Assembly: GCA_944387435.1 (NCBI GenBank)
Contig: CALXEW010000003.1
Span: 15,777-79,776, forward strand
Length of the DNA: 64,000 nt
DNA from: an uncultured Clostridia bacterium
GTDB taxonomy: Bacteria > Bacillota > Clostridia > TANB77 > CAG-508
Direction: 5' to 3'
Positions 3,506 to 56,199 of the stretch are shown piece after piece. The position numbers and the translations under genes are program-made. Within the stretch, counting starts at the first letter, position 1. Each line of letters opens with the position of its first letter. Below the pieces are notes generated by a model that was not told the origin of the DNA, searched no databases, and worked only from the letters and a program-made list of their open reading frames with translations.

Positions 3506-3512
3506 ATATATA

Positions 3513-5282: not shown

Positions 5283-5302
5283 AATAAAATATAAAACTAA
5301 CC

Positions 5303-5334
5303 AAAAAACCAATATTAGAAATATTGGTTTTTTG
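5303..5334 (+). terminator. Intrinsic terminator
   Basis: Stem AACCAATAT/ATATTGGTT followed by TTTTTTG. Confidence 0.75.
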
Positions 5335-5489
5335 TTGTTTTTGCAACAGTTTTATTTTTAAATAAACTATATATTATTTGCATAAATATATTAAAAACAA
5401 TTGCTTATATTTTTCTAATATGGTATTATAATATATGGCAAATTGTTTATACTAATAGAATAATATAAGAAATTTAAAGGAGGTAAAAA

Positions 5490-7727
5490 ATGGATTTTGA
5501 ACAATGGAAAAATTTTAAAAAAGGTGATTGGCAATCAGAAATAAATGTTAGAGATTTTATACAACATAATTACACACCTTATGAGGGAGATGACAATTTT
5601 TTAGCTGGTCCAACTGAAAAAACTAAAAAGCTTTGGGATGAAGTTTTAGACCTTTACAAAAAAGAACATGATGCAAAAGGTGGAGTATTAGATATAGATA
5701 CAAAAACAATATCTACAATAACTGCTCATGATGCAGGTTATATTGATAAAGATTTAGAAGATATAGTAGGACTTCAAACTGATGCCCCTTTAAAAAGAGC
5801 TATCATGCCATTTGGTGGTATAAGAATAGTTGAAAAGGCTTGCGCTGCTTATGATAGAAAAGTAGATGATGAAGTAGAAAACATATTCCATAAATATAGA
5901 AAAACTCATAATGATGGAGTATTTAGCGTATATACACCAGATATCAGGCTAGCTAGAAGTTCACACTTAATTACAGGTCTTCCTGATGGATATGGACGTG
6001 GAAGAATAATTGGAGATTACAGAAGGGTTGCTCTATATGGAGTAGATGTTCTAATTACTGAAAAGCAATCTGAATTAGATGTTTTAAATACAGATGAATT
6101 AACTGAAGAAGTTATAAGATCAAGAGAAGAAATTAGTGAACAAATCAATGCATTAAATGAATTAAAAGAAATGGCTGCAAAATATGGATTTGATATTTCA
6201 AAACCAGCTTCAAATGCTAGAGAAGCAGTTCAATGGTTATATTTCGGATATTTAGGAGCTATAAAATCACAAGATGGTGCTGCAATGAGCTTAGGTAGAA
6301 CTTCTACATTCTTAGATATTTATTTTGAAAGAGACTTACAAAATGGTACTTTAACAGAAGAAGAAGCTCAAGAAATCATGGACCACTTTGTTATGAAATT
6401 AAGATTAGTTCGTTTCTTAAGAACACCTGAATATAATGAATTATTCAGCGGAGACCCTGTATGGGTAACAGAAAGTATTGGTGGTATGGGAATAGATGGT
6501 AGAACTTTAGTTACTAAAAACTCTTTCAGATTACTTCATACTCTTCAAAACTTAGGACCTGCGCCAGAACCAAACATGACAGTTCTATGGTCTACAAGAT
6601 TACCTGAAGGATTTAAGAGATTTACAACTAACTTATCTATCAAAACATCATCTATCCAATATGAAAATGACGATTTAATGAGAATTACTTTAGGTGATGA
6701 TTATGGTATTGCATGTTGTGTATCTCCAATGAAAATAGGTAAACAAATGCAATTTTTCGGTGCAAGAGCTAACCTTGCTAAAACTCTACTTTATGCAATT
6801 AATGGTGGTAGAGACGAAGTTTCAGGAAAACAAGTTACGCCTAAATATGCACCAATTACTTCTGAATACTTAGACTATGATGAAGTTATGGAAAAATTTA
6901 ATCAAATGATGGATTATGTAGCAAAAATCTATATAAAAGCTTTAAATGCTATTCATTATATGCATGATAAATATTGCTATGAAGCTATCGAGATGGCATT
7001 ACATGATAGAGAAATTATTCGTACAATGGCTTGTGGTATTGCAGGACTTTCAGTTGTAGCAGACTCATTATCAGCTATAAAGTATGCTAAAGTAAAAGTT
7101 ATTCGTGATGAAACAGGACTTGCTGTTGATTACAAAGTTGAAGGAGATTTTCCTAAATTCGGAAATGATGATGACAGAGTTGACAAAATAGCCGTTGATA
7201 TTACTAAAAACTTTATGAATAAATTAAGAAAACATCAAACTTATAGACATTCAAAACATACATTATCTATTTTAACAATTACTTCAAATGTAGTATATGG
7301 AAAAGCTACAGGAAATACTCCTGATGGAAGAAGAGCTGGAGAACCATTCGGACCTGGAGCTAACCCACTACATGGAAGAGATACAAATGGAGCATTAGCA
7401 GTTATGAACTCTATTGCAAAACTTCCATTTGATAGTGCAGAAGATGGTATTTCATACACATTCTCAATTACACCTGGAACATTAGGTAAAACAGACAATG
7501 AAAAAATAGATAACTTAGTTAATATGCTTGATGGTTACTTTACACAAACAGGTCATCATATTAATGTTAATGTATTTGATAGAAGCTTACTTGAAGACGC
7601 TATGGAACACCCAGAAAATTACCCACAACTTACAATTCGTGTTTCTGGATATGCTGTTCACTTTACAAAACTAACAAGAGAACAACAATTAGATGTAATC
7701 CATAGAACAATTCATGAAAGAATATAA
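5490..7727 (+). CDS. pflB: Pyruvate formate-lyase (glycyl radical enzyme)
   Basis: Glycyl-radical motif [11 protein letters not shown] near the C-terminus, catalytic Cys pair GIACCVSPM, 745 aa, good RBS AAGGAGG. Confidence 0.95.
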
Positions 7728-7778
7728 CTGATATAAACTAAAAGAGAGATAAATAAAGAATAGAAAGTTTAAAAGTAC

Positions 7779-7799
7779 AAGGGGAATTTATTTCCCCTT
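7779..7799 (+). terminator. Hairpin between pflB and pflA (partial terminator or processing site)
   Basis: Stem AAGGGGAA/TTCCCCTT with a 5-nt loop and only a short T-run. Confidence 0.5.
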
Positions 7800-7819
7800 T
7801 AATACTGTAAGGAGCAATT

Positions 7820-8557
7820 ATGAATAACGAAGAAAAAGATTTAAGATATTATGCAAAAGTTCACTCAGTAGAATCACTTGGAACAGTTGACGGACCAGGT
7901 ATTCGTTTCGTATTATTTTTACAAGGATGCCATTTAGAGTGTAAATACTGTCATAACAGGGACACTTGGGATATTAACTCTGGTAGTTATCAATCACTTG
8001 ATGAAATTTTTGATAAAATTATGAGATATAAAAATTATATATATCCAAGAGGTGGTGTTACTATCAGCGGTGGCGAACCATTACTTCAACATAAGTTTAT
8101 TTTTGAATTATTTACTAAATTAAAGAAAGAAAATATTCACACTTGTATAGATACTTCAGGTATGGTCGCACTAACTGATGATATTAAAAAATTGATAAAT
8201 ATAACTGATTTATTTTTATTAGACATCAAACATATTGATGATGAAAAGTGTAAAGACCTAGTCGGAAAATCAAATAAATTAGAACTTAACTTCGCTAGAT
8301 ATTTAAGTGATAATAACATTCCTATATGGATTAGACAAGTATTAGTTCCAGGATATACAGATGACGAACAAGATTTATTAAAACTAAAAGACTTTATCAA
8401 TTCTCTTAAAACTGTAGAAAGAGTAGAAATTTTACCATATCATAGTGTTGGAGAATTTAAGTGGAAAGAGCTTGGTTTAACTTATCCTCTAGAAGGTGTT
8501 AGACAAGCAGATAATAATGATGTAAAAAGAGCAAAAGAAATATTAGGGATTAATTAA
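7820..8557 (+). CDS. pflA: Pyruvate formate-lyase activating enzyme (radical SAM)
   Basis: CxxxCxxC cluster motif GCHLECKYCHN. 245 aa, directly downstream of pflB. Confidence 0.93.
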   Translation: MNNEEKDLRYYAKVHSVESLGTVDGPGIRFVLFLQGCHLECKYCHNRDTWDINSGSYQSLDEIFDKIMRYKNYIYPRGGVTISGGEPLLQHKFIFELFTKLKKENIHTCIDTSGMVALTDDIKKLINITDLFLLDIKHIDDEKCKDLVGKSNKLELNFARYLSDNNIPIWIRQVLVPGYTDDEQDLLKLKDFINSLKTVERVEILPYHSVGEFKWKELGLTYPLEGVRQADNNDVKRAKEILGIN

Positions 8558-8559
8558 CA

Positions 8560-8590
8560 GATGTTTTTTGGGACGGGGTCAAAAAACATC
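8560..8590 (+). repeat. REP-like palindromic 3'-end element, copy A
   Basis: GATGTTTTTTGGGACGGGGTCAAAAAACATC, 3 nt after the pflA stop. Same core as the copies at 10866, 13491 and 56336. Confidence 0.85.
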
Positions 8591-8621
8591 AGAAGCATTT
8601 TATAAAAATTATTAATAAATA

Positions 8622-8650
8622 TTGACTTTTACGTTTTAAAATATTATAAT
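8622..8650 (+). promoter_or_regulatory. Consensus sigma-A type promoter (TTGACT-17-TATAAT)
   Basis: TTGACT at 8622-8627, 17-nt spacer, TATAAT at 8645-8650. It points toward the 3' end of the minus-strand small ORF. Confidence 0.6.
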
Positions 8651-8656
8651 TAATTT

Positions 8657-8722
8657 GTAAGATAAATATTATTTGTTTTTAAACATATAATATAAAAAGT
8701 AAGGCAAAGCCTTACTCTTTAG
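8657..8722 (+). ncRNA. Candidate short antisense RNA (possible type I antitoxin)
   Basis: Bounded by the promoter at 8622-8650 and the hairpin at 8699-8715. No ORF. It overlaps the last codons and terminator of the convergent small ORF. Confidence 0.35.
8699..8715. terminator. Bidirectional terminator hairpin shared by convergent transcripts
   Basis: GTAAGGC-AAA-GCCTTAC. On the minus strand it is followed by TTTTTATATT, on the plus strand by TCTTTAG. Confidence 0.7.
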
Positions 8723-8879
8723 TTAAAACATTTTCGGATTTATTGTTAATATCAGTCTTGGTAGGGCTGATATTAACTTTTTCTTTGTCTATATAGAATT
8801 GATATCTTACAATTCCAATTATGCCAACCAATACAGCTAAACAAAGAATAATAAATCCTATTCCTATGTACTTTTCCAT
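8712..8879 (-). CDS. 55-aa single-TM small protein (candidate type I toxin)
   Basis: My translation: MEKYIGIGFIILCLAVLVGIIGIVRYQFYIDKEKVNISPTKTDINNKSENVLTKE. SD GGGAGG lies 8 nt before the ATG. The ORF is below the apparent size cut-off of the ORF track. Confidence 0.6.
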   Translation of the reverse strand: MEKYIGIGFIILCLAVLVGIIGIVRYQFYIDKEKVNISPTKTDINNKSENVLTKE

Positions 8880-8925
8880 AGGATTAACCTCCCTCTTTAG
8901 TAAATTTGCTCCTAACGTATAGTCA

Positions 8926-8974
8926 GGTGCATAAACTAATATTTAGTTGGATACAAAATACTAATTTATGCACC
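8926..8974 (-). promoter_or_regulatory. Long 5'-leader hairpin upstream of the small ORF
   Basis: GGTGCATAAA...TTTATGCACC outer stem, which can extend to about 19 bp when G-U pairs are allowed. Confidence 0.5.
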
Positions 8975-9006
8975 CAACTTCAAGAGAGTTGCTTCAACCG
9001 ATTAAT

Positions 9007-9035
9007 AATATATCAAAATTCAATTTAATTGTCAA
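9007..9035 (-). promoter_or_regulatory. Promoter for the small-ORF transcript (TTGACA-17-TATATT)
   Basis: On the minus strand, TTGACA (9035-9030), 17-nt spacer, TATATT (9012-9007). Confidence 0.5.
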
Positions 9036-9062
9036 TATTTATATAAAGTTTTACAAATAAAT

Positions 9063-9299
9063 TTAGTCTTGCTCTGCCGTGTCAAACATTTCATCTGAAA
9101 AAAATTCTTTTAATGTTATATTAAAGCCTTCACAAATATGAAGTAAAGTATCTATTTTTAATAATTCCGTTTTTCCACTCATAAAAGTTGAAATTGTTGA
9201 ACAAGGTATTCCTGACATTTTACAAAGTTTCCAAACATTCATATTTTTTTCTTCCAAATAATATTTTATTCTTTTTCTAATAGCATCTGATAATCTCAT
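9063..9299 (-). CDS. XRE-family HTH regulator, divergent from a pilin-like gene
   Basis: MRLSDAIRKRIKYYLEEKNMNVWKLCKMSGIPCSTISTFMSGK... Start chosen at ATG 9299 with GGAGGAG upstream. The longer track ORF begins in AT-rich spacer. Confidence 0.8.
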   Translation of the reverse strand: MRLSDAIRKRIKYYLEEKNMNVWKLCKMSGIPCSTISTFMSGKTELLKIDTLLHICEGFNITLKEFFSDEMFDTAEQD

Positions 9300-9402
9300 T
9301 CTTCTCCTCCAAAAACCTTTAAATTCTAATGAAATTATATATAAATGCTTATCTTTTATACTTTGGCTAATTGAAAAAAGTAAAAATATTTTCAATTTAT
9401 CG

Positions 9403-9468
9403 AACTAGTTTGTTGCATTGAAGTTTTTGTTGTGTTATACTAAAAGTACTTCAATTTGCCAAACTAAT
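9403..9468. promoter_or_regulatory. Long imperfect inverted repeat in the divergent promoter region (likely operator)
   Basis: AACTAGTTTGTTGCATTGAAGT ... ACTTCAATTTGCCAAACTAATT, enclosing a TATACT -10-like box. Confidence 0.45.
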
Positions 9469-9493
9469 TTTTAAAAAGAAAGGATTTGATAAA

Positions 9494-10786
9494 ATGAATT
9501 ATTCAAAAGAAAAAAATAGAGGAATTACATTAATTGCATTAGTGATAACTATAATTGTTCTACTAATTTTAGTTGGAGTTTCAATTGTAATGCTAACAGG
9601 AGAAAACAGAATACTTACACAAGTACAAAAAGCAAAAGAAGAAACAGATTTATCAACCGCAAAGGAAATAATTGAAATATCAATAATTGGAAGTTATGAT
9701 AATTCTGGTAAACTAAGTTTAGATAAATTTAAAACAGAAATACAAAACCAAGGTGGAACTGTAACTGGTAATACATTTCCAGTAATAGTAAATATAAAAG
9801 ATTATGAAACTGCTGTAAATGCTAACGGAAACACAATGGAAATTAAAGAAATTGACAAAATAACAGGAAATGAAGATAATAATATATTAACAGAAGATAG
9901 TTTAGGAAATCAAATAATTGTACCTTCAGGATTTAAGGTATTAAATCCTAGTGATAATGTAACAGATGGAATAATAATTCAAGATGTAAGTCATACTGAA
10001 ACAATAGGTAGTGAATTTGTATGGATTCCACTTGGAGATATAAAAATAGATAAAGAAGGAAATACTAAAACAGTAACATTAAATAGGTATACATTTGATG
10101 AGAACGGAAAAGAAACAGCTAGAAATAACGAACCAATTATACAACCAGAAGAAAATGCTGTTTCAGAAGGGATTTATAATAATCAAGAATTAGAAAAATC
10201 AGATAAAGGAAATATAACTGCAATAAATATAGAAGATTTTAAAAATGATAGTACAATTAACAAAGGGTATTATATAGGAAGATATGAAGCCAGAACATCA
10301 GTTGAACGAAAAAATGGAAATGACATTTTAACATCGTTAACAATAAAACCTAGTGAATATATTTATAATTATATAACTCAGTCTCAAGCTGCAACATTAA
10401 GTAGAAATATGTATAATGATAATAATTTCACAAGTGATTTAATAAATAGTTATGCGTGGGATACTTCAATAGTATTTTTCCAAACATTTGATAATAGAGA
10501 AAATAATGTAATACCATATTCAAGGCAAAAGAGTTTAAATAATGACATTTTAGCACCCAAAGGAACTAATGATTTAGTTACAAAAGATGTTATATGTAAT
10601 GTATATGATATAGCAAGTAATTGCTTTGAATGGACAACAGAAACTTGTTACAAGCCAGATAGTCCTTGTGTTCGTAGAGGAGGTAATTTTAGAAAAAGTT
10701 ATTTCTATGCTTCTGTACGTGGTGATTGGGGAATTACAAATAATAGTGATGTTTATTCATTCCGTCCTATTTTATATTTAAAATAA
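9494..10786 (+). CDS. Pilin-like (class III signal) N-terminus fused to an FGE-sulfatase/SUMF1-like domain
   Basis: N-terminus KNRGITLIALVITIIVLLILVGVSIVMLTGENRILTQVQKAKEE. C-terminus NVYDIASNCFEWTTE...RRGGNF...SFRPILY resembles the FGE-sulfatase motifs (GNVWEWT, RGGS, GFR). Confidence 0.8.
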   Translation: MNYSKEKNRGITLIALVITIIVLLILVGVSIVMLTGENRILTQVQKAKEETDLSTAKEIIEISIIGSYDNSGKLSLDKFKTEIQNQGGTVTGNTFPVIVNIKDYETAVNANGNTMEIKEIDKITGNEDNNILTEDSLGNQIIVPSGFKVLNPSDNVTDGIIIQDVSHTETIGSEFVWIPLGDIKIDKEGNTKTVTLNRYTFDENGKETARNNEPIIQPEENAVSEGIYNNQELEKSDKGNITAINIEDFKNDSTINKGYYIGRYEARTSVERKNGNDILTSLTIKPSEYIYNYITQSQAATLSRNMYNDNNFTSDLINSYAWDTSIVFFQTFDNRENNVIPYSRQKSLNNDILAPKGTNDLVTKDVICNVYDIASNCFEWTTETCYKPDSPCVRRGGNFRKSYFYASVRGDWGITNNSDVYSFRPILYLK

Positions 10787-10865
10787 AATACCAAAAACTT
10801 AACATAGAAAAAGATGTATAAATTATATATTTAAAATTTATACATCTTTTTATTTATATATCTGC

Positions 10866-10892
10866 TGTTTTTTGACCCCGTCCCAAAAAACA
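10866..10892 (-). repeat. REP-like palindromic 3'-end element, copy B
   Basis: Plus strand reads TGTTTTTTGACCCCGTCCCAAAAAACA, 3 nt after the cadA-like stop. On the gene sense strand it reads T6-GGGACGGGGTC-A6. Confidence 0.85.
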
Positions 10893-10895
10893 ACA

Positions 10896-12734
10896 TTATT
10901 TTACTTTCAATGCTCTTAATGAATTTATTATTGCAAGTACTGATACTCCCACATCTGCAAAAACTGCTTCCCACATAGTTCCTATTCCAAATGCTGTTAA
11001 TATTAAAACTAATACTTTAACTGCTATTGCAAATATGATATTTTGTTTTACTATTCTCATTGTCTTTTTAGAAATCTTGATTGCAGTTCCTATTTTTGAT
11101 GGTTCATCTGTCATAATGACTACATCTGCTGCTTCTATTGCTGCATCTGAACCAAGTCCTCCCATTGCAACACCAATATCTGAAATTGCTAAGACTGGAG
11201 CATCATTTATACCATCTCCTACAAATACTAACTTCCCTTTTTCAGATTTATCTTTCATTAACTCTTCTACTTTTTCGACTTTTCCATCTGGTAATAATTC
11301 TGTATATACCTTATCTAAACCTAATTCATTTGCAACACTTTCTCCTACTTGCTTTTTATCTCCTGTAAGCATTACTGTTTCTTTAATGTTATTTGCCTTT
11401 AATTCTTTTATAGCTTTAAAAGAATCTTCCTTTATCTTATCTGCAATTAATATATATCCTGCATATTTATTATCAATTGCAACATAGAGAATTGTTCCTA
11501 TTTCATTACAAGGAGTATAAGAAATATTCTTTTCTTCCATTAATTTATCATTTCCAATCAAAACTTCTCTTCCTTCTACATTTGAAGATACTCCCCTACC
11601 TGCTAATTCCTCTGTTTTTAAAATACTACTTTGATTTATTTCCTTATTATATGCTTTTCTTAATGATAGTGAAATTGGATGATTTGAGTTACTTTCAGCA
11701 TATGCTGCATATTTTAATAATTCTTCTTTAGATATTCCATTTGCTTCTACTTTTTGTACTTCAAAAACACCTTCTGTTAATGTACCTGTTTTATCAAAAA
11801 CAACTATTTCTGTATTCGCTAAAGCTTCTAAATAATTACTTCCTTTAACTAAAATTCCTGTTTTAGATGCTCCTCCAATTCCTCCAAAGAATCCTAGTGG
11901 TATTGATATTACTAAAGCACAAGGGCAAGACACAACTAAGAATGTTAAAGCACGATATAACCATTCTGTAAATTCTCCTAAGTTTAGTACAAATGGTGGG
12001 ATAATTGCAAGAAGTACTGCTATTATAACTACAATTGGTGTATAATATTTTGCAAATTTAGTTATAAAGTTTTCTGATTTAGATTTTTTACTACTTGCAT
12101 TTTCTACTAAGTCTAATATTTTGCTTACAGTAGATTCTCCAAATTCTTTTTCTACTTTTATAGTAAGTAATCCATTTTCGTTAATACAACCACTTAGTAC
12201 TTCATCTCCAACAGTTACTTCTTTAGGAATTGACTCTCCTGTTAATGCTGATGTATCTATCATGGAACTACCTTCTACTATCATTCCATCTAAAGGTATC
12301 TTTTCACCTGGTTTTACAACTATGTTTTCCCCAACTTTTACATCTTCTGGGGATATTTTTTCTACTTTTCCATTACGTTTTACAAAAGCTATATCTGGTC
12401 TTATATCCATAAGGCTTGTAATTGATTTTCTTGATTTATCTACTGCATAATCTTGGAATAATTCTCCTACTTGGTAAAATAACATAACAGCAACAGCTTC
12501 TGGAAATTCTCCAATAACAAAAGCACCAATTGTCGCTATCGCCATTAAAAAATGCTCATCAAATACCTTTCCTCTAAATATATTTCTAATAGCCTTCCAT
12601 ACAATTTCTAATCCAACTATTAAATAAGCAATTATATAAAGTCCTTTATTTATTAAATCGTTTTCAAAAGGAACGGCCATTGCTACTAAGAAAAGAATAA
12701 ATGAAATTATTATTTGTATTAAGCTCTTCTTCAT
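10896..12734 (-). CDS. cadA: Heavy-metal (Cd/Zn/Co-type) P1B-type ATPase without a fused metal-binding domain
   Basis: CPC motif VSCPCALVISIPL, phosphorylation site DKTGTLT, hinge GDGINDAP. Start set at MKKSLIQII (ATG 12734) behind a perfect TAAGGAGGA RBS. Confidence 0.9.
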   Translation of the reverse strand: MKKSLIQIIISFILFLVAMAVPFENDLINKGLYIIAYLIVGLEIVWKAIRNIFRGKVFDEHFLMAIATIGAFVIGEFPEAVAVMLFYQVGELFQDYAVDKSRKSITSLMDIRPDIAFVKRNGKVEKISPEDVKVGENIVVKPGEKIPLDGMIVEGSSMIDTSALTGESIPKEVTVGDEVLSGCINENGLLTIKVEKEFGESTVSKILDLVENASSKKSKSENFITKFAKYYTPIVVIIAVLLAIIPPFVLNLGEFTEWLYRALTFLVVSCPCALVISIPLGFFGGIGGASKTGILVKGSNYLEALANTEIVVFDKTGTLTEGVFEVQKVEANGISKEELLKYAAYAESNSNHPISLSLRKAYNKEINQSSILKTEELAGRGVSSNVEGREVLIGNDKLMEEKNISYTPCNEIGTILYVAIDNKYAGYILIADKIKEDSFKAIKELKANNIKETVMLTGDKKQVGESVANELGLDKVYTELLPDGKVEKVEELMKDKSEKGKLVFVGDGINDAPVLAISDIGVAMGGLGSDAAIEAADVVIMTDEPSKIGTAIKISKKTMRIVKQNIIFAIAVKVLVLILTAFGIGTMWEAVFADVGVSVLAIINSLRALKVK

Positions 12735-12744
12735 AATATCCTCC

Positions 12745-12963
12745 TTAATTTTCATCAACCTTAACATCTGGTTCTTCTCTTTTTACTACCTTTTTTATTT
12801 TCTTAAATATTTCTTCATCTTCACTACTAATTTCCACAGTCATCTTCTGTGTCATAAAACTAACAGATACATCTTCTACTCCATCTATCTTTTTTACATG
12901 TTCTTCTATTTTAGCTGCACAATTTGCACAGTCTAATCCTTTTAATTTAAAACTTTTTTTCAT
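12745..12963 (-). CDS. Stand-alone heavy-metal-associated (HMA) domain protein / metallochaperone
   Basis: GLDCANCAAKIE metal-binding motif. 72 aa. Its stop lies inside the RBS of the ATPase gene. Confidence 0.85.
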   Translation of the reverse strand: MKKSFKLKGLDCANCAAKIEEHVKKIDGVEDVSVSFMTQKMTVEISSEDEEIFKKIKKVVKREEPDVKVDEN

Positions 12964-12975
12964 AAAATCACCTTC

Positions 12976-13335
12976 CTATTTATGTTCTATATGTTCAATT
13001 CCTAATTCAAATAAGCCTCTTACGTGGTCATCATCAATTGTATAATATACTTCTTTTCCCTGTCTTCTACATTTTACGATACTCATTCTTCTTAATGTTC
13101 CAAGTTGATGTGATATAGATGATTTACTCATACCTAATACATTTGCAATATCACATACACACATTTCATTTTGGTCTAATGCAAATAATATTTTTGCTCT
13201 TGTTGTATCACCTAAAATCTTAAAGAACTCTGCTAATTTATTAAATAAATCATCTTCTGGCATTTTGCTTAATGTATCTTTTACAATATCTTCATGGATT
13301 ATATTACAATCACATATAAATTCATTTTTTGACAT
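12976..13335 (-). CDS. ArsR/SmtB-family metalloregulator (CadC-like)
   Basis: EMCVCDIANVLGMSKSSISHQLGTLRRMSIV (wHTH with a CVC metal site). Start at MSKNEF with AAAGGAGA RBS. Confidence 0.88.
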   Translation of the reverse strand: MSKNEFICDCNIIHEDIVKDTLSKMPEDDLFNKLAEFFKILGDTTRAKILFALDQNEMCVCDIANVLGMSKSSISHQLGTLRRMSIVKCRRQGKEVYYTIDDDHVRGLFELGIEHIEHK

Positions 13336-13402
13336 AACTTTTTTCTCCTTTCTAATCAATTATATGTATAGATAATTGAATAAATGTTCAACTGTTACTT
13401 AT

Positions 13403-13432
13403 ATTATAGTTGAGTACTTACTCAATTGTCAA
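13403..13432 (-). promoter_or_regulatory. cad operon promoter with operator palindrome between -35 and -10
   Basis: Minus strand: TTGACA (13432-13427), 18-nt spacer, TATAAT (13408-13403). The spacer holds the 7-2-7 palindrome TTGAGTA-CT-TACTCAA (13410-13425). A second palindrome, TTGAA-N6-TTCAA, is at 13376-13391. Confidence 0.65.
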
Positions 13433-13460
13433 TAGTTTTTATAAAAATTCACACAAAAAA

Positions 13461-13480
13461 TACATCTCTTTCAAGATGCA
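13461..13480 (-). terminator. Intrinsic terminator
   Basis: Minus strand: TGCATCT-TGAAAG-AGATGTA followed by TTTTTTG. Confidence 0.7.
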
Positions 13481-13490
13481 TTTCTTTTAT

Positions 13491-13521
13491 GATGCTTTTT
13501 GACCCCGTCCCAAAAAACATC
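13491..13521 (-). repeat. REP-like palindromic 3'-end element, copy C
   Basis: GATGCTTTTTGACCCCGTCCCAAAAAACATC, between the stop codon (13531) and the terminator. Confidence 0.85.
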
Positions 13522-13530
13522 AACACATAT

Positions 13531-14466
13531 TTACATACCTAATAATTTTAATTCAACATTTCCCATTTTGTATTTACCATCTACTAATTTAAATTCTACT
13601 AGAGTATTTTCAAGAGTTTCCTCATTTTGTCTTAAATCAGTTGTAAAATATAATTTTATTTGAGGTATTTCTACTTGATTTGTTACAATTTCCTTGAAAG
13701 TCTCTGCCATATGTCTTTCATCTTCACAAACAAGTATTAACTGTGGCATACCTGAAAATCCAGAATCACCTGGAACAAAGTTTTCATAAAAATCTTTATA
13801 TAATTTCATCTTTTCAACTAATTTTTTTTCCCAGTCAAGTTCTCTTCTAATAACTTCAAATACAAATTGAATAGATTTTTTATTTTTAGTAAGTTTTACA
13901 CTACCACCAGACGCTTTAAATACTTTACCTACAACTTTTGCTGTTAATGTTGGTTTTACAGTAAATTCATCAAATGCCTTTACTTTTCTTAAATAAGCAA
14001 TTAGAATTTGGTTTCCTGCTAGTCTTTTCTTAATCATAGCTACTGGTTTTGTGTTATCAGATGGTTGCCACTTACATTCTTTTTCTTGAGAAGTTAATAG
14101 GTATTTACCCATTTTTTCCATACAATAAATACGATAAATCCCTTTACCTTCTTCTGAATTAAAGTAATATCTAGTTAAAATTTTTGATTTTACTAGTTGC
14201 TCTAATTTATTATTTAATTTATCTTGAGTTTTAATTTCAACGCCTTTTATCTCTAACATTTGAAAAATTTGTCTTGATGTTATAAATTCAAATTCATTAA
14301 CTAAATCCAAAATAGCAAAATGAATCTCATTAATATGCCCAATATTTATTTTGTGTACAATTTGATTCATTGAGACATATCCATCTTTACCATCAAATGT
14401 TTTTATTTCTCCTTCTCTAATCGCAAATGGTGATACTTTAGTTTTTATTTCTTGATCTTCTACCAT
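13531..14466 (-). CDS. Hypothetical protein with an N-terminal winged-helix segment, resembling replication-relaxation family proteins
   Basis: INEIHFAILDLVNEFEFITSRQIFQML...KLEQLVKSKILTRYYF...GIYRIYCMEKMGKYLL matches the general pattern of that family. Start set at MVEDQEI behind GAGGAGGAAGG. Confidence 0.45.
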   Translation of the reverse strand: MVEDQEIKTKVSPFAIREGEIKTFDGKDGYVSMNQIVHKINIGHINEIHFAILDLVNEFEFITSRQIFQMLEIKGVEIKTQDKLNNKLEQLVKSKILTRYYFNSEEGKGIYRIYCMEKMGKYLLTSQEKECKWQPSDNTKPVAMIKKRLAGNQILIAYLRKVKAFDEFTVKPTLTAKVVGKVFKASGGSVKLTKNKKSIQFVFEVIRRELDWEKKLVEKMKLYKDFYENFVPGDSGFSGMPQLILVCEDERHMAETFKEIVTNQVEIPQIKLYFTTDLRQNEETLENTLVEFKLVDGKYKMGNVELKLLGM

Positions 14467-14485
14467 TTTCCTTCCTCCTCTTGTT

Positions 14486-15286
14486 CTATACAATAAGTAA
14501 TTTTACTTTTTTTCTATTATAATCTATCTTCTTTATATAAACATCTACATCTTGTCCATATTCCAAACCGTCTTCATATTCTGCCATTCCAACTAAGTTA
14601 GGTGTAAGTTCTATAAAAATACCGTTTTTATTTTTCTCTGTTTCTCTTACTTTTCCTCTAACTTTACTTCCTGTTTTAAACTTTGAAGCATTTTCTTCCC
14701 ATGAACCCAATAATTCTTTATATGATAAAATTACTTTTCCTTGCTCTCTATTTATAGATTTTACCACAACTTCAAGCTTTTGTCCAATTTTCAATCTTTC
14801 ATAGGGTGATTTTATCCTTGCGATAGATAAATCTTCAATGTGAACTAACCCAACAATTCCTCCACCTATTTCAATAAAAGCTCCATATGGTTTTATGTTT
14901 TTTACTATTCCATCTACCTTTTGTCCTATTTTTAAATCATTTTTAACCCAGTTGATTGCTTCTTTTTGAACTTGTTTTCTAGACAATATTAATTCATTAT
15001 CTTCTATATCTTTTATTTTGAACTGTACAAATTTGTGCACCTTTCCTATACATAAATTTTCCCTTGGAAGCCCGTCTTCTTCTGTCTTTATAGCCTCTAC
15101 CTCTTCACGTGGTATTTTACCTACTAATCCATTTTCAAAGTTCACATATAAATTATAATCATCATCACAACTTTTTACTAATCCTTGTATAGTTTTATTA
15201 TTTTCCATATAAATTTTAAAATTATCTCTATCTAATTTTGTAATCTCATTATTCCATCCTTCTGGCTCAAATTTTAATGTATTCAT
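14486..15286 (-). CDS. S1 RNA-binding domain protein (multiple S1/OB repeats)
   Basis: GQKVDGIVKNIKPYGAFIEIGGGIVGLVHIEDLS...KIGQKLEVVVKSINREQGKVILSYK is a canonical S1 motif. Further S1-like repeats flank it. Confidence 0.85.
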   Translation of the reverse strand: MNTLKFEPEGWNNEITKLDRDNFKIYMENNKTIQGLVKSCDDDYNLYVNFENGLVGKIPREEVEAIKTEEDGLPRENLCIGKVHKFVQFKIKDIEDNELILSRKQVQKEAINWVKNDLKIGQKVDGIVKNIKPYGAFIEIGGGIVGLVHIEDLSIARIKSPYERLKIGQKLEVVVKSINREQGKVILSYKELLGSWEENASKFKTGSKVRGKVRETEKNKNGIFIELTPNLVGMAEYEDGLEYGQDVDVYIKKIDYNRKKVKLLIV

Positions 15287-35317: not shown

Positions 35318-36592
35318 TTAATACATTGCAATCCTAAAACCAGCACAGAATAAATTATGCTCAAAAACATATGGATTATAACTTCTATAGTTTGCTGTAG
35401 CATTTTTTCCTGAATGGTAAAATCCACCTCCTCTTATTGAACATGGATTATCCGGGTCACCTGAATATTCTAAAGTCCATTCCCAAACATTTCCGGCCAA
35501 ATCATAAATATTTTGTTTGCAATTTTGTTCTGTAATACCTGTCGTGCATAAAACAGAATAATTATCCCTATTAGTTGTTGACAATTTTATTTTATTTTTT
35601 ACGCATCCTTCTAAGTTGTCAGTATATATATTCCAAATGTCAAGATTATTTATTTGTGTATACTTACCATTATTCATCATAAAAGTAGAGTCATAATAAT
35701 TTCCCCAACTTGTACTGTCTTCTTTTAAGTATTCTTGAATTATGCTCGAATTAGAAGTTTCCCACTCTGCGTTTTTTTCTAAATAAACTAATACTAAATC
35801 CCATTGAACCCCAAACATTATATTGCTTGAATATCCTTCGACATTATTTCTTGCCGCAATTTCCTCAGCTTCATTACAATATACGTATGTTAATGGATAC
35901 AAACCTTTCTGTGATAATGGTACCAGATTCGAAATATCCGAATGGCTAGTTCTTTTTTCTAAAACTCCTATTTCATACCTGCTTATCCAAAATCCAGCAT
36001 TTTGGTAAACACTCCTTAACATTTTTTTCTTTAATGAATTATAATCTGTCTCTGTTAACCCTGTTGTTTCAGTTGAGTAATACTTATCACTATACTTTGT
36101 TCCATTACGATATAAATATGTATATGCATGTAAATCATTTTCTATTTTTTCGTAATCGCTCTCGGTGAAATCTACTATATCTGTTCCAGCAGTATTATAT
36201 ATCTCTGTTGTTTTTGGAACTTCTATCCATACATATTCATTCCCTTTAGAATCTATTATTACTAATCCATTTTCTATTGTATTTTCTCCCTCTACTTTTG
36301 ATACCGCAAATCCAGCGGGTATAATTACTGTTTTTTCCTCTTCAACACTACTGTATATCGTATTTTCTAAATTTGTTGCTGCTTCTAATGATGTTAATCT
36401 CCTTAATTCCTCTTCTCCTTTTTGCTCTGTTTCATTCTTTGCTCTTCGTGCTTGCGAAAGTATTCCATTTTCTCCTGTTAGCATTGCAACAGATACTCCT
36501 GCAAGTATTAGAAGTACAATTATAGTTATTACTAATGCTATAAGTGTTATACCTTTTTCCTTTCTTTTTAATATTTTTTTGTTTTCTTTCAT
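35318..36592 (-). CDS. Pilin-like (class III signal) N-terminus fused to an FGE-sulfatase/SUMF1-like domain
   Basis: KEKGITLIALVITIIVLLILAGVSVAMLTGENGILSQARRAKNE. C-terminus NIYDLAGNVWEWTLE...IRGGGF...AGFRIAMY. Confidence 0.85.
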   Translation of the reverse strand: MKENKKILKRKEKGITLIALVITIIVLLILAGVSVAMLTGENGILSQARRAKNETEQKGEEELRRLTSLEAATNLENTIYSSVEEEKTVIIPAGFAVSKVEGENTIENGLVIIDSKGNEYVWIEVPKTTEIYNTAGTDIVDFTESDYEKIENDLHAYTYLYRNGTKYSDKYYSTETTGLTETDYNSLKKKMLRSVYQNAGFWISRYEIGVLEKRTSHSDISNLVPLSQKGLYPLTYVYCNEAEEIAARNNVEGYSSNIMFGVQWDLVLVYLEKNAEWETSNSSIIQEYLKEDSTSWGNYYDSTFMMNNGKYTQINNLDIWNIYTDNLEGCVKNKIKLSTTNRDNYSVLCTTGITEQNCKQNIYDLAGNVWEWTLEYSGDPDNPCSIRGGGFYHSGKNATANYRSYNPYVFEHNLFCAGFRIAMY

Positions 36593-36744
36593 TATTTCTT
36601 CCTCCTTTAATTTTATTTATATATTTCAAAACTTAATAACTATTTTAAAAACACAAAAAAGACAGCGACAAAGCCTATATTTTAGGTTTCATCACTATCT
36701 TTTCTATTTATATTTATTCTATTTTTATTTTCTAATAACCTACT

Positions 36745-36766
36745 TGTGTGTGTGTGTGTGTGTGTG
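36745..36766. repeat. (TG)11 dinucleotide microsatellite
   Basis: 11 uninterrupted TG units in the 300-bp spacer upstream of the pilin-like gene (start 36592) and downstream of the glucan synthase stop (36894). Confidence 0.95.
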
Positions 36767-36893
36767 TACAGCCTCAAGGCTTACATGTTCTACTTTTTTC
36801 ATTTTTGTTTTCCTTTCTCTTTTGTCTTTCTTATATAGTTATTTTATCAATTAATATGCTTTTGTAAATAACTTTAGCATTTTTTATTAATTT

Positions 36894-54159: not shown

Positions 54160-54348
54160 ATGATAAAACAATATCGAAAAAGACATAGCCTATCACAAGA
54201 AGAACTTGCAGAAGAAATCGGTATAAGTTCAAGACATTTACAACGTCTAGAACGTAATGAAGAACACACAAGAGTTTCAACCTTCAAAAAGATTGTAAAA
54301 GCTTTAGATATACCAGACGATGAAATTATAAAATTTATAAAAAAGTAA
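54160..54348 (+). CDS. Small XRE-family HTH protein
   Basis: IKQYRKRHSLSQEELAEEIGISSRHLQRLERNE. GGAGG RBS. Confidence 0.8.
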   Translation: MIKQYRKRHSLSQEELAEEIGISSRHLQRLERNEEHTRVSTFKKIVKALDIPDDEIIKFIKK

Positions 54349-54380: not shown

Positions 54381-54650
54381 TTATACTCCTTTTTCAAACT
54401 CTTTCTTTATATCTTTTAATAAATCATTAACATCTATTCCTAATGCATATGCCAATCCAAATAGTTCATAATCTTTTACTGTTCTTTTATTATTTTCTAT
54501 ATCATATAAACTTTGTTTGTGTATACTTATTCCCATTAATTCTAATTTTCCTGCTAATTTTTCATATGACATTTTTTCTTTTGTTCTATATTCTTTTAAT
54601 CTTTTTCCTATTACATTCATATTATTGTTGAACTTTGCAATTAAAGACAT
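54381..54650 (-). CDS. XRE-family HTH regulator, divergent from a pilin-like gene
   Basis: IGKRLKEYRTKEKMSYEKLAGKLELMGISIHKQSLYDIENNKR. Confidence 0.8.
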   Translation of the reverse strand: MSLIAKFNNNMNVIGKRLKEYRTKEKMSYEKLAGKLELMGISIHKQSLYDIENNKRTVKDYELFGLAYALGIDVNDLLKDIKKEFEKGV

Positions 54651-54749: not shown

Positions 54750-56199
54750 ATGAAATATTCAAAAGAAAAAGGAATCACTTTAATTGCATTAGTAATCACT
54801 ATCATTGTTTTACTAATTTTAGCGGGAGTTTCAATTGCTATGCTTACTGGACAAAACGGAATATTAACTCAAGCAACTAGTGCAAAGGAAAAGGCAAATA
54901 AAGCAACAGAGGAAGAAAAAATACAGATGGCAGTGTTAGGAAGCAGCTTAACTGATAGTGGCTATAATGCTATTTTAGATGAGACAAGTTTTAAGCAGGA
55001 GTTAGCAAACCAATTTGGAAGTCAAAGTTTAGATGTAGTGGCAAATGGAGATGGAAGTTTTATAATAACTATAGAAGATACACAAAGAAAATACTATGTT
55101 AATGATGATAAAACAGTTATAAATAGTGATAACATTATAGAAATAGGTACAGCAGAAGAATTAGCAAGTTTTAGAAATGATGTAAATAATGGAAACACTT
55201 ATGAAGAAAAAGCAATATTACTTACTAACAATATAGATTTACAAGGAGAAGAATGGGAACCAATTGGATATTATCCTCCAGAAAATGTTGATTCACCAAA
55301 TGCCAATACTAATAAACCATTTAAAGGAATTTTTGATGGTTGTGGATATGAAATAAATAATTTTTATATAGATACTACAGAAAAAGTTCAAGGATTATTC
55401 GGATTAGTAAATAATGCAAAAATTGCAAATTTGGGTGTAGGAGAAAACGTAAGCATTAATGGAGGTATTGGAACAGCAGGAGTTGTTAGTTATATTTATA
55501 ACAGAACTAAAGTATATAATTGTTATAATAAAGCAAGAATCAAAGGAAATGATAATCATACAGGAGGAGTTGTTGGTATTAGTCATGAAAACAATCAAGT
55601 TTCAAATTGCTATAATTTAGGTAAAATTGATGGGACAATAAATGTTGGAGGTATTGTAGGATATTTAAATACTTCATCAGTGCTTAGTAATTGTTACAAC
55701 AACGGTAATATAACAGCAAGTCAAAGCTGGGTTGGTGGAATAGTAGGTCAAGCACAAAATTCATCAATAATAGAGACATCTTATAATAGAGGTTCTATAT
55801 ATGGAGAATCTGATGATACAGGAGGAATAGCTGGAAAACTTTTTACTAATTGTATAGTAAGAAATTGCTATAATATTGGCGAAGTGACAGGAAATGGAGA
55901 TTATATTGGTGGTTTAGTGGGTCTAATTCAAAACAGTAGTGCTGAAAACTGTTATAATATTGGAATAATTAATGGTGACAATGCGACCGGGATAAATTCA
56001 GCAATAGGATTCATTAATGTATCAACTGTAAATAATTGTTATGTTCTTGAGCGGTGGAAATTATAGTAATGCAGTAAGTGGAATAAAAGTATTAAGTAGT
56101 GATGAATTAAAAAATGCATATAGTTTATTAGGAAATAAATTTAAAGAAAACACAAAAGGTATAAATAATAATTATTATCCTATTTTATATTGGCAATAA
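54750..56199 (+). CDS. Pilin-like N-terminus fused to a GLUG-motif repeat domain, interrupted by a +1 frameshift at an in-frame CGG
   Basis: KEKGITLIALVITIIVLLILAGVSIAMLTGQNGILTQA. Repeated GG(I/V/L)VG units (GGVVGIS, GGIVGYL, GGIVGQA, GGIAGKL, GGLVGLI). Skipping c56052 extends the protein by GGNYSNAVSGIKVLSSDELKNAYSLLGNKFKENTKGINNNYYPILYWQ to the TAA at 56197-56199. Confidence 0.8.
56052..56054 (+). other. In-frame CGG codon at a +1 shift site (GAG-C-GGT-GGA)
   Basis: It is codon 435 of ORF 54750..56066. The zero frame stops 3 codons later. The +1 frame stays open for 48 more codons. Confidence 0.8.

Follow-up and report, generated by a model that had tools for sequence, protein, structure and literature searches.

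Putative modular type IV pilins with an invariant N-terminal helix, exchangeable C-terminal domains and predicted gene-by-gene control in uncultured Clostridia

Modular pilins were already defined by Raynaud et al. (2021, PMC8179133); the examples from Streptococcus sanguinis are PilB, which carries a vWA module, and PilC, whose additional module is a lectin (Raynaud et al. 2021; Shahin et al. 2023, PMC9934059). The view of the original prediction that the architecture treated here is not a described system can therefore not be upheld. Four genes in the window, i.e. the whole 64-kb stretch of DNA which was analysed, probably encode modular type IV pilins with an invariant alpha1 helix, swapped domains and a control exerted gene by gene. 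As in the S. sanguinis proteins, an N-terminal class III signal and pilin module is joined to a bulky module for ligand binding, there are many alternative C-terminal modules, and display on the type IV pilus of a Gram-positive bacterium is proposed. The proteins of the window differ from those of S. sanguinis in the residue at position 5, which is Ala and not Glu, in a PF07963 (N_methyl) score below the cut-off (18.0 and 16.6 bits vs. 21.2), and in an alpha1N which is essentially identical to that of the major pilin. Furthermore, the genes of the family are scattered in the window outside of any pilus operon, at least eight copies are present per MAG, and each gene has its own predicted XRE repressor or repeat switch. 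In the published census, proteins were selected by the InterPro entry for the class III signal, IPR012902 (PMC8179133), and for this reason the family was probably missed.

With regard to the control of gene 2, the pil1 locus of Streptococcus gallolyticus is comparable. There, a repeat is located in a leader ORF in front of a premature terminator, and a change of frame puts the stop codon into the terminator, so that the ribosome blocks the hairpin and the pilus gene is ON (Danne et al. 2014, PMC3894217). Here, too, a simple repeat in the ORF of a leader peptide is followed by a terminator, and from the sequence alone a change of frame is predicted to move the leader stop into it. However, the repeat unit is the dinucleotide (AC)n and not the pentanucleotide GCAGA, the targets are single putative genes of type IV modular pilins and not a sortase-pilus operon, and the arrangement occurs at hundreds of loci, with the leader also present as in-frame fusion or in front of RBS-sequestering hairpins. 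A lack of Glu5, a large size, extra domains and a proposed position at the tip are also known from tip pilins of the GspK/PilK type and from large minor pilins of the CofB/TcpB type. In those systems, only the capping subunit lacks Glu5, whereas here this applies to the presumed major pilin, too.

It had been predicted that the four genes (Table 1) share about 45 almost invariant residues at their N-termini, and this was confirmed for all of them. The near-invariant module common to the four has the form (K/R)G-ITLIALVITIIVLLILAGVSIAMLTG-x-NGIL; the C-termini beyond it are unrelated, as the four parts without the module showed no mutual similarity except for genes 1 and 2 (21% identity). GITLIALVITIIVLLILAGVSIAMLTG is present with zero to two substitutions in genes 1, 2 and 3 (in the latter in the frame 54750-56066, + strand). 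Concerning genes 3 and 4, the predicted coordinates silently read through frameshifts, and two of the four genes are actually broken. The frame of gene 3 is interrupted near the 3' end (54750-56066), and the conserved C-terminal end is carried by the +1 frame (56041-56199). Gene 4 (start at 60318, - strand) encodes the first 18 residues of the module before an extra C at ~60240 breaks the frame, and its long ORF picks up again at MLTGDNGIL (59091-60224); it is likely a pseudogene due to this 1-nt insertion. Both frameshifts are regarded as real, because identical truncated products of 438 aa (gene 3) and 377 aa (gene 4) were called in at least three independent metagenome assemblies.

Table 1. 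Position of the genes, putative regulatory elements and protein parts in the 64-kb window.
Feature	Position	Strand	Remarks
Gene 1	9494..10786	+	intact putative modular pilin, 430 aa
Gene 1, parts of the protein	residues 1-66; ~67-120; ~130-430		class III-like signal and alpha1 helix; small alpha/beta module; C-type-lectin/FGE-fold domain
Gene 2	35318..36592	-	intact putative modular pilin, 424 aa, FGE/lectin-like C-terminus, behind the predicted repeat switch
Gene 3	54750..56199	+	putative modular pilin with GLUG repeats, frameshifted
Gene 4	59091..60318	-	putative modular pilin with BspA-type LRR, 1-nt insertion inside the module
XRE-family HTH gene	9063..9299	-	78 aa, divergent from gene 1; Pfam HTH_26, E=3.7e-10
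XRE-family HTH gene	54381..54650	-	89 aa, divergent from gene 3; HTH_19 and HTH_3, E ~1e-6
Additional XRE HTH gene	54160..54348	+	62 aa, tail-to-tail with the XRE gene 54381..54650; HTH_3, E=6.2e-15
XRE-family HTH gene	60464..60739	+	91 aa, divergent from gene 4; HTH_3, E=2.5e-9
Intergenic inverted repeats, candidate XRE operators	9359..9469	.	around the promoter region of gene 1
Conserved putative operator block TGATAAATTATCATTGACAATGATAA	60367..60392	.	overlaps the -35 box of gene 4
Sigma-70-like promoter TTTACA-16-TAAAAT, extended TG	36841..36868	-	upstream of the leader; consensus match only, 10/12
Leader ORF MKKVEHVSLEAVHTHTHTHK*	36740..36802	-	with RBS, ATG at 36802
(AC)11A repeat, (TG)11 on the + strand	36745..36767	-	encodes (His-Thr)n in the leader ORF
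Intrinsic terminator (hairpin 36707-36653 and T-run)	36647..36707	-	between leader ORF and gene 2

At the DNA level, the copies of the module differ at many, largely synonymous positions, and the protein is invariant. This argues for selection on the protein, and a recent gene conversion as the cause of the identity was ruled out. In total, 12,645 cluster representatives of the family were obtained at E<=1e-10, and in all but one of the best 150 matches the module was located at the N-terminus. A possible phage origin was considered as well, and a tblastn search with gene 1 against 50,697 phage records gave no match. Literature searches with peptide strings of the module yielded no papers.

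In related genomes, the module forms the N-terminus of small, tandemly repeated proteins of pilin size inside a complete type IV pilus operon. This operon comprises the genes for a PilM/N fusion, a PilO-like protein, pilins, PilD, two minor pilins, PilB, PilT and PilC; it is present in 12 related genomes (12 GTDB loci), the sister species included, and the same operon was found in every context of a PilB homologue that was examined. On contig L030 of the sister species, three tandem proteins of 131-143 aa start with ...KGITLIALVITIIVLLILAGVSIAMLTGDNGILTQ. They are flanked by the PilM/N and PilO-like genes on one side and by PilD (A24_N_bact, E=3.6e-29), two minor pilins, PilB (T2SSE, E=2.6e-92; TIGR02538, E=1.7e-105; MshEN), PilT (TIGR01420, 317 bits) and PilC (T2SSF) on the other. 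The same MAG contains contig L007, which is syntenic with positions 1-18341 of the window at 90-94% nucleotide identity (sister species ~91%). The operon resembles the pil operons of Clostridium perfringens and Clostridium difficile (PMC3244431, PMC6916266) in its set of PilD, PilB, PilC, PilM-N-O and PilT, in the N-terminal MshEN domain of PilB (c-di-GMP-binding type), and in its tandem pilin genes. In contrast to these operons, all major-type pilins possess I1 and A5 and show hardly any variation in alpha1N, PilM and PilN form a fusion, and PilD is divergent, showing neither a match to the Pfam Peptidase_A24 HMM nor the canonical GxGD motif; two Asp residues are invariant in the operon PilD.

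Due to its size and its position in the operon, the small module-bearing protein is presumed to be the major pilin. An acidic residue at +5 is confined to a single minor pilin (GFTGID). Beyond approximately residue 60, no similarity in sequence could be detected between the large proteins and the small pilins of the operon, and because a BLASTP comparison of the post-helix part of gene 1 with an operon pilin gave no alignment, homology beyond this residue is not claimed. The operon was not found for the species of the window, of which the window covers 64 kb, and the five close PilB homologues (94-99% identical) through which it was sought in the species of the window are all located in the operon and all come from other samples. 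The original prediction had named the existence of a prepilin peptidase and of pilus machinery in the genome as its touchstone; this point is answered for the lineage and not for the window's own genome.

The predicted class III signal-like N-terminus with Ala instead of Glu at +5 was recovered in all four genes and in 131 relatives as a short basic leader ending in Gly and followed by the hydrophobic stretch (~20 or more residues) expected of type IV pilins, e.g. MKYSKEK-G-ITLIALVITIIVLLILAGVSIAML. In an alignment of 85 members, at least 90% have Ala at +5. Glu5 normally drives the docking of subunits into bacterial type IV filaments and is 'often, but not always' present in type IV pilins (PMC10191384). 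TIGR02532 matched neither the window proteins nor the operon pilins, and none of the NCBIfam pilin models matches proteins of the family. A structure prediction, which had been proposed as a check, was carried out for gene 1 with AlphaFold2 (pLDDT 83.8 overall) and yielded a long helix, a small sheet domain and a lectin-like domain. The N-terminal helix comprises 57 residues (10-66) and is followed by a second helix (76-85) and four strands (89-117), with pLDDT values >90 in this part; the model therefore contains the long alpha1 helix (~50 residues) on a beta-sheet head that is expected of a pilin.

The C-terminal domain of gene 1 had no match in Pfam, and its assignment to the FGE/C-type-lectin fold is based on AlphaFold2 and Foldseek. 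The best structural matches were Mtd (1yu4), TvpA (2y3c) and TaqVP (5vf4), which belong to the DGR variable proteins, as well as FGE and PvdO, and the fold is that of a ligand-binding scaffold. These matches had a sequence identity of only 10-16%, and the resemblance to FGE is one at the level of the fold (TM ~0.25-0.4). The matches to Mtd and TvpA brought a DGR variable protein into consideration, which was rejected since neither a template repeat nor a reverse transcriptase occurs in the window. For the other genes, Pfam revealed FGE-sulfatase in gene 2 (weak, E=9e-4), Glug in gene 3 (E=1.4e-11) and LRR_5 in gene 4 (E=7.6e-7), so that the swapped FGE-like (twice), GLUG and BspA-type LRR domains of the original prediction were borne out. 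Among 85 members of the family, the C-terminal parts comprised LRR_5, FGE-sulfatase, Glug, LRR_8 and Dockerin. As in the definition of modular pilins, a pilin module is hence combined with functional modules which are not specific to pili. The C-terminal part of gene 2 is 77% identical in amino acids to the gene at locus 1 of the sister species, and a syntenic comparison showed different C-terminal cassettes at the same chromosomal position in related genomes; the conserved module appears to act as a site of homologous recombination. Repeat copies of the 3' ends of genes 1 and 2 were not found anywhere in the 64-kb window.

Beside the exchange of domains, the control of the single genes was considered. 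Genes 1, 3 and 4 are each accompanied by a divergently transcribed small XRE gene, as had been predicted, and Pfam HTH matches support the annotation. The XRE gene next to gene 1 was called with the same length in four independent assemblies. Likewise, palindromes in the shared intergenic regions were verified at 9403-9469 and 60367-60385. In the former region, the arms 9403-9433 and 9439-9469 are 71% complementary and the arms 9359-9375 and 9450-9466 are 88% complementary; the entire region 9359..9469 is 92% identical in the sister species, and a promoter scan of locus 1 revealed no consensus site for gene 1. Gene 4 possesses a promoter with TTGACA (60379-60374, -35) and TATAAA (60356-60351, -10), and a perfect 9+9 palindrome (60367-60385) lies over the -35 box. 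Across three genomes, the putative operator block hardly varies (L012 has one substitution), in comparison to ~65% identity in the remaining intergenic region. The pairing is also conserved and enriched beside module genes: a divergent XRE gene was present within 900 bp in 21 of 68 informative units with a large gene (approximately a third), 24 of the 39 XRE ORFs in 1.26 Mb adjoin module genes, and none of 12 operon pilin arrays has a divergent XRE neighbour. An HTH protein and a predicted palindromic operator over the gene 4 promoter correspond to an XRE/Cro-C1 repressor with a divergent target.

At the gene 2 locus, a (TG)11 tract had been described as taking the place of the XRE gene. The tract itself was confirmed (36745-36766, 153 nt upstream of the start of gene 2), but it is most probably not a mere stand-in, as it is predicted to form the core of a leader/terminator switch. 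With n=11, the leader ORF stops 2 nt past the tract (predicted OFF). When the window locus was simulated, the leader extended to a TAA (36684-36682) in the terminator loop at n=9 or 12, and the stop was placed 2-10 nt past the repeat at n=10, 11 or 13. The terminator hairpin has a dG of -25.5 kcal/mol in comparison to -7.0 +/- 2.3 for shuffled sequences and is kept in 11 GTDB-derived loci (55 type A sites in all); the position of the leader promoter is conserved in the alignment of 11 loci. Within 1.3 Mb of related loci, all (AC)n tracts of n>=6 are located upstream of a module gene, and 10 of the 11 lie ~120-190 nt away from the start of that gene. The order of promoter, leader, repeat and terminator is conserved across related loci, as is the leader peptide x-SL(E/A)(A/G)V(HT)n. 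Exactly one frame is open from the repeat to the terminator loop in 38 of 40 independent loci (23% expected), with totals of 2, 121 and 196 post-repeat stop codons in the three frames, and the stop of the long frame lies at most 3 nt from the terminator loop in 44 of 55 sites. The (AC)n leader is thus predicted to be a phase-variation switch consisting of leader peptide and terminator, of the kind known from S. gallolyticus pil1, with the window copy OFF. Such leaders occur at hundreds of loci in uncultured Clostridia in three structural variants, which include positions upstream of RBS-sequestering hairpins. Rfam gave no matches for the whole window at gathering thresholds, so that no known riboswitch (e.g. 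for c-di-GMP) precedes the module genes, and a literature search on dinucleotide repeats, phase variation, pilins and Clostridia retrieved nothing specific.

Three other explanations have to be weighed against an individually controlled, pilus-displayed protein family. The module might be an uncleaved signal-anchor of type II membrane proteins at the cell surface, its helix being shared with the pilins by descent and never entering a filament. The Ala in place of Glu5, the pilin HMM scores under threshold, the globular parts without similarity to the operon pilins and the scattered genes would fit this, as would the fact that the repeat-containing leader also precedes non-pilin, TM-anchored proteins. 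However, a plain anchor gives no reason why at least 27 residues of the module hardly vary, be it between paralogues or between species in which the DNA identity of housekeeping genes is only 70-80%; the presumed major pilin itself has these very residues, together with the basic leader and the Gly at -1, and the predicted 57-residue helix with its small sheet is pilin-like. We therefore consider an anchor unlikely. Alternatively, the proteins might be cut by PilD and act outside of a long pilus, either released or in a short pseudopilus or a bindosome-like layer, comparable to archaeal sugar-binding class III proteins. Class III signals on non-pilin proteins are known (PMC3047682), many cargo types occur per genome, and a missing Glu5 is also a feature of the archaeal substrates. 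Against this, true retractile T4aP typically possess what is also present in the operon, i.e. a retraction ATPase (PilT) and, in tandem, genes of pilin size that share the N-terminus, and the bacterial modular pilins studied so far (S. sanguinis PilB and PilC) are incorporated into pili (PMC8179133), which makes substrates outside of a pilus quite improbable.

The third explanation concerns the repeat, which might be a His/Thr tRNA-charging attenuator, or an element acting by promoter spacing or Z-DNA, instead of a switch. In the hisL and thrL leaders, runs of His or Thr codons precede a terminator, and the His and Thr codon runs found here resemble them. Moreover, the tract has n=11 throughout the three other samples of the window's species in which it is fully covered, another contig ending inside the tract, so that no switching was seen at this locus. 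An alternative antiterminator structure, however, was not evident, and in other species the length of this perfect dinucleotide array differs between nearly identical loci in 18 of 20 same-locus clusters. Preservation of exactly one post-repeat frame ending in the terminator loop likewise speaks against it, as do 34 other sites at which this repeat has become part of the main ORF through an in-frame fusion, where only the frame can matter. A function in promoter spacing is in conflict with the position of the tract inside an ORF downstream of the promoter and not between the -35 and -10 boxes. Taken together, a role of the repeat other than phase variation is very improbable.

According to the preferred reading, i.e. 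individually controlled modular pilins, the module (45-60 residues) would be a prepilin-type (class III) signal consisting of a basic leader ending in Gly and the hydrophobic alpha1 helix. The pilus whose presumed major pilin has this same sequence is T4aP-like (PilB, PilT, PilC, PilM/N, PilD) and conserved across a clade of uncultured low-GC gut Clostridia. From the sequences, we infer that PilD cuts after Gly and that the invariant helix admits each of the large proteins into the same filament as the major pilin. There, most likely at the tip or in a position of low abundance, the lectin-like, GLUG or LRR domain might be displayed as an adhesin. Genes 1, 3 and 4 would be controlled by the divergent XRE repressor via a palindromic operator over the pilin promoter. 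For gene 2, the putative order is promoter, short leader ORF with (CAC-ACA)n, intrinsic terminator and gene, and slippage of the dinucleotide would shift the frame of the leader. In two frames, the ribosome would halt just past the repeat, the terminator would form and the gene would be OFF. In the third frame, the ribosome would reach the stop codon in the terminator loop and mask the 5' arm, so that transcription could read through (ON). A gain of one repeat or a loss of two would turn the window copy, predicted to be OFF with n=11, to ON. As far as computation goes, the original prediction of modular, individually regulated, pilus-associated surface proteins is thereby supported, the module being the N-terminus of operon pilins.

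More tentatively, the clade might possess a pilus with a Glu5-less major pilin, into which more than 10,000 distinct cargo domains, missed by current pilin models, could be plugged by means of a universal, almost invariant alpha1 helix. Each cargo gene could be switched singly, either by an XRE repressor of its own or by the repeat-in-leader attenuator, which is also used in the form of an in-frame fusion and might act as a switch of translation as well. Such a system might provide each cell with a stochastic, combinatorial set of pilus adhesins and would imply a Glu5-independent filament assembly in bacteria. A lineage with a presumed major pilin lacking Glu5 challenges the usual account of subunit docking, and the invariant helix suggests a strict constraint by co-assembly.

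Attenuation by a repeat in the leader rested until now on one experimental example (Streptococcus); as three structural variants of it now appear at hundreds of loci, simple-repeat phase variation becomes visible and countable in gut metagenomes. The sequences suggest adhesins which are displayed on the pilus and can be exchanged for one another, each controlled by a repressor of its own or by an on/off switch depending on repeat length. The family is among the larger surface-protein families of low-GC gut Clostridia, yet of the more than 7000 homologues of gene 1, none of the best 120 has a name or precomputed Pfam domains. Recognition as modular pilins would provide tens of thousands of proteins with a testable function, i.e. 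adhesion to the host or to glycans on a retractile pilus. The low-GC gut Clostridia in which the family occurs come from humans, rodents, rabbits and chickens.

As read from the sequence, the system putatively joins modular type IV pilins to a leader-peptide repeat attenuator, each of them a known kind. The original prediction of modular, individually regulated and pilus-associated proteins holds in substance, as indicated by the predicted fold, the operon of relatives and the XRE and repeat elements. New here would be the Ala5 pilins missed by pilin models, the very large and diverse set of cargo domains and the gene-by-gene control by XRE proteins or repeats. Cleavage by PilD, incorporation into filaments, adhesin function and the regulatory effects are all putative.

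In a six-frame search of the window (GC content 27.5%), the peptide GITLIALVITIIVLLILAGVSIAMLTG was found once at each of the four loci named in the original prediction and nowhere else. Together with the Pfam matches, this confirms a four-gene family that shares an N-terminal module of about 45–60 residues and differs in the C-termini. Loci and module were placed correctly, but genes 3 and 4, which had been read as unbroken, are both frameshifted. In gene 3, the first ORF reaches only to 56066; the conserved C-terminal sequence (...YPILYWQ) is read in the +1 frame (56041–56199). Gene 4 carries one additional C at about 60240, by which the frame is lost after ...LLILA; a long ORF restarts at MLTGDNGIL (59091–60224). 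Since at least three independent assemblies yield the same shortened products (438 aa for gene 3, 377 aa for gene 4), these frameshifts are real lesions and not errors of the window assembly. Between the copies, the module DNA differs at many positions, largely at synonymous sites, and the protein is invariant, a pattern indicating purifying selection on the module peptide. In the C-terminal parts, Pfam identified Glug repeats (gene 3), LRR_5 (gene 4) and, as a weak match, FGE-sulfatase (gene 2); gene 1 gave no Pfam match, and its related fold was seen only by structure prediction. After removal of the module, detectable similarity among the four genes was restricted to genes 1 and 2 (21% identity).

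Features of the window and gene order of the type IV pilus operon in the sister species (contig L030)
Feature	Position	Strand	Remarks
Gene 1	9494–10786	+	module and whole coding sequence intact; divergent XRE gene; predicted state: possibly expressed
Gene 2	35318–36592	-	module and whole coding sequence intact; repeat switch, n = 11; predicted state: phase-OFF
Gene 3	from 54750	+	module intact; 3' frameshift; divergent XRE gene; predicted state: truncated
Gene 4	ATG 60318	-	frameshift within module; divergent XRE gene; predicted state: likely pseudogene
Sigma-70-like promoter	36868–36841	-	conserved layout
Leader ORF MKKVEHVSLEAVHTHTHTHK (stop) with RBS	36802–36740	-	His-Thr run = repeat
(AC)n repeat, (TG)11 on + strand	36767–36745	-	codes for His-Thr run of leader
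A-rich spacer	between leader ORF and hairpin	-	
Hairpin and T-run	36707–36647	-	-25.5 kcal/mol (-7.0 ± 2.3 in shuffles)
RBS of gene 2	after hairpin and T-run	-	
L030 operon, 1			PilM/PilN fusion, PilO-like protein, 150-aa protein
L030 operon, 2			three pilin-sized genes
L030 operon, 3	10500–11315		prepilin peptidase PilD; A24_N_bact, E = 3.6e-29; CxxC...CxxC motif; two invariant Asp
L030 operon, 4			minor pilin starting GFTGID; minor pilin starting GITLITL
L030 operon, 5			PilB; T2SSE, E = 2.6e-92; best NCBIfam match type IV-A PilB; MshEN domain
L030 operon, 6			PilT (PilT/PilU family, 317 bits); PilC (T2SSF)

The AlphaFold2 model of gene 1 (63 homologues, pLDDT 83.8) comprises an unbroken helix (10–66), a small sheet module of a helix and four strands (76–117) and a separate domain (about 130–430), for which the best PDB matches were the C-type-lectin-fold proteins Mtd, TvpA and PvdO and formylglycine-generating enzymes. 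The structure prediction thus supports the proposed pilin-like architecture. Its layout is the same as that of the modular pilins, in which by definition a ligand-binding module is grafted onto a pilin module (Raynaud et al., PMC8179133); the architecture, not recognised as a described system in the original prediction, is thus a known one. For the census in that study, proteins were selected via InterPro entry IPR012902 (class III signal). Its Pfam counterpart, the motif model PF07963 (N_methyl), reached 18.0 bits here, which is below the cut-off of 21.2, and TIGR02532 matched none of the window proteins or operon pilins; the module family has therefore probably escaped this census.

The pilin-like N-terminus with Ala at +5, noticed initially in the window genes, recurs in the small operon pilins of relatives, so that large module proteins and presumed major pilins alike possess this residue. 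Subunits of bacterial type IV filaments normally use Glu5 to pair with the N-terminal amine of their neighbour, the tip-capping subunit being the only one devoid of it (PMC10191384); here, in contrast, only one minor pilin of the operon has an acidic residue at +5. The module might alternatively be a plain membrane anchor. However, paralogues and species hardly differ in its hydrophobic helix, which is not expected of a plain anchor; one would expect such conservation if all these proteins had to pack into one filament core.

In L030, small module genes sit within a complete type IV pilus operon. This type of operon occurs in 12 loci of different species and also around every close PilB homologue looked up. 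L030 and L007 belong to one MAG (BRZ_HK__bin22), and L007 is collinear with positions 1–18341 of the window (90–94% nucleotide identity); therefore, the sister species has both the pilus machinery and scattered large module genes. Prepilin peptidase and assembly genes are thus present in the sister species and 11 other related genomes; the pilus operon of the window species itself was not located in the contexts of close PilB homologues examined. PilD of L030 and 10 orthologues showed neither a Pfam Peptidase_A24 match nor a GxGD motif; only the N-terminal A24_N_bact matches, and the second invariant Asp lies within LDTITLK. This divergence may relate to the unusual I1/A5 substrates. The N-terminal domain of PilB in this clade is of the c-di-GMP-binding-like MshEN type, and the window encodes a response regulator with a GGDEF domain (49899–50822, -; Pfam annotation), which makes a control of the pilus by c-di-GMP plausible.

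When a profile of the first 58 module positions was searched against 1.84 billion proteins, 12,645 cluster representatives were obtained at E ≤ 1e-10. The module was N-terminal in all but one of the best 150 matches (protein lengths 60 to about 700 aa), and none of the best 120 homologues of gene 1 carries a name. The back-translated motif occurred in more than 593 stretches of GTDB representative genomes. Nearly all of the best 80 were labelled "uncultured Clostridia bacterium" or "Clostridium sp." (e.g. CAG:440), besides one Eubacteriales and one Bacillota, and their record titles suggest gut samples of human, rabbit, mouse and chicken as sources. In 79 fetched loci, 131 module ORFs were found, either large (250–670 aa) or small (127–170 aa, in tandem sets of one to three).

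At locus 1, window and sister species can be aligned over the XRE gene, the region between the genes (92% identity) and the module as far as about 9656, and again from 10912 onwards. The C-terminal part of the sister species at this locus shares 77% of the amino acids with window gene 2 and 23% with gene 1. The two window loci that flank the Ca-ATPase gene are likewise conserved in position, together with their XRE genes, in L012, L082 and L039, which possess other C-terminal types there. Because the C-termini differ at conserved positions, the module marks one boundary of replaceable cassettes, and we infer recombination as the cause of their replacement. In a distant relative (L005, 1.05-Mb contig, 9295–16756), three gene 1-type paralogues behind one divergent XRE gene alternate with transposase genes (Y1 and DDE), a hint that mobile elements may have taken part in spreading the module family.

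A divergent XRE gene within 900 bp was detected in 21 of the 68 large-gene units with enough upstream sequence and in none of 12 operon pilin arrays; 24 of the 39 XRE-type ORFs in 1.26 Mb adjoin a module gene. The block TGATAAATTATCATTGACAATGATAA at locus 4 (60392–60367) harbours a perfect 9+9 palindrome together with the -35 hexamer TTGACA, which is followed after 17 nt by TATAAA. This block is nearly invariant in three genomes (one substitution in L012), whereas the rest of the intergenic region is about 65% identical. This fits a local XRE repressor that would occlude the pilin promoter. The three divergent XRE genes and palindromes of the original prediction are present; a fourth XRE HTH gene (54160–54348, +; 62 aa; HTH_3, E = 6e-15), located tail-to-tail with the XRE partner of gene 3, had been overlooked.

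The (TG)11 tract noted at the XRE-less locus of gene 2 is likewise present, and its predicted role is that of a leader-peptide repeat before a terminator. Related loci (1.3 Mb) have (AC)n tracts of n ≥ 6 exclusively upstream of module genes without an XRE gene, and 10 of these 11 tracts are about 120–190 nt away from the gene start; the repeat numbers range from 7 to 17. About 230 nt around the tract are conserved, with promoter, leader ORF and its RBS, spacer, hairpin with T-run and RBS of the gene as listed in the table. Past the repeat, two frames stop within 0–26 nt; the third is open and ends in the terminator loop. In simulations of the window locus, the leader stops 2 nt past the repeat at n = 11 (predicted OFF) and reaches the TAA at 36684–36682 in the loop at n = 9 or n = 12 (predicted ON). 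All three other samples of the window species spanning the tract also have n = 11. A metagenome contig of this species (L088) ends inside the tract, equivalent to about 36765 of the window, which could be due to read heterogeneity at the repeat or mere assembly difficulty. Immediately upstream of the switch, a 2245-aa protein with Glycoamylase, GH94 beta-supersandwich and Glyco_hydro_94 domains is encoded (36894–43631, -), which is cyclic beta-1,2-glucan or cellobiose-phosphorylase-like. Gene 2 is directly followed by a 211-aa ORF (34480–35115, -) without Pfam or NCBIfam match, which all four other samples have at this position.

Scanning metagenomes for the conserved leader pattern yielded at least 120 further stretches, and 117 sites with enough downstream sequence were analysed. 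The leader-plus-terminator layout was found at 55 of these, in 44 with the long-frame stop within 3 nt of the loop. One frame was open from repeat to loop in 38 of 40 independent loci (23% expected from shuffles), and the stop codons in the three frames totalled 2, 121 and 196. At 34 further sites the leader continues in frame into the main ORF, in many cases straight into the pilin leader (e.g. ...AV(HT)nDILKNKKGITLVAL...), and many of the remaining 28 have a hairpin pairing the downstream RBS. The repeat number differs in 18 of 20 clusters with flanks at least 95% identical (e.g. 6, 9, 12, 13, 15, 15); the assembled sequences show the ON frame at 17 of 52 attenuator-type and 15 of 34 fused loci. 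For S. gallolyticus, experiments have shown that GCAGA repeats in the leader ORF of the pil1 sortase-pilus operon shift the stop of this ORF into a premature terminator (PMC3894217); the (AC)n leader is predicted to act by the same mechanism.

In the RBS-hairpin layout (L205, L091, L149, L154, L159; L206, L112, L164), no terminator follows the (AC)n leader, the hairpin is of the type GAGGTGT...ATACCTC, and the start codon coincides with, or is close to, the stop of the long leader frame, which suggests that the same repeat may exert translational rather than transcriptional control. The SL(E/A)(A/G)V(His-Thr)n leader occurs in pilin fusions (L092, L123, L170, L196, L133), but also fused in frame to a non-pilin family of membrane-anchored (TM) proteins (L204, L106, L128, L167). 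With a terminator, it also precedes a signal-peptidase-like gene (L101, L122), which we read from its motifs (...SGSMETQIKTGDLV...) as a putative type I signal peptidase. This leader thus looks like a general, presumably phase-variable expression cassette in these Clostridia.
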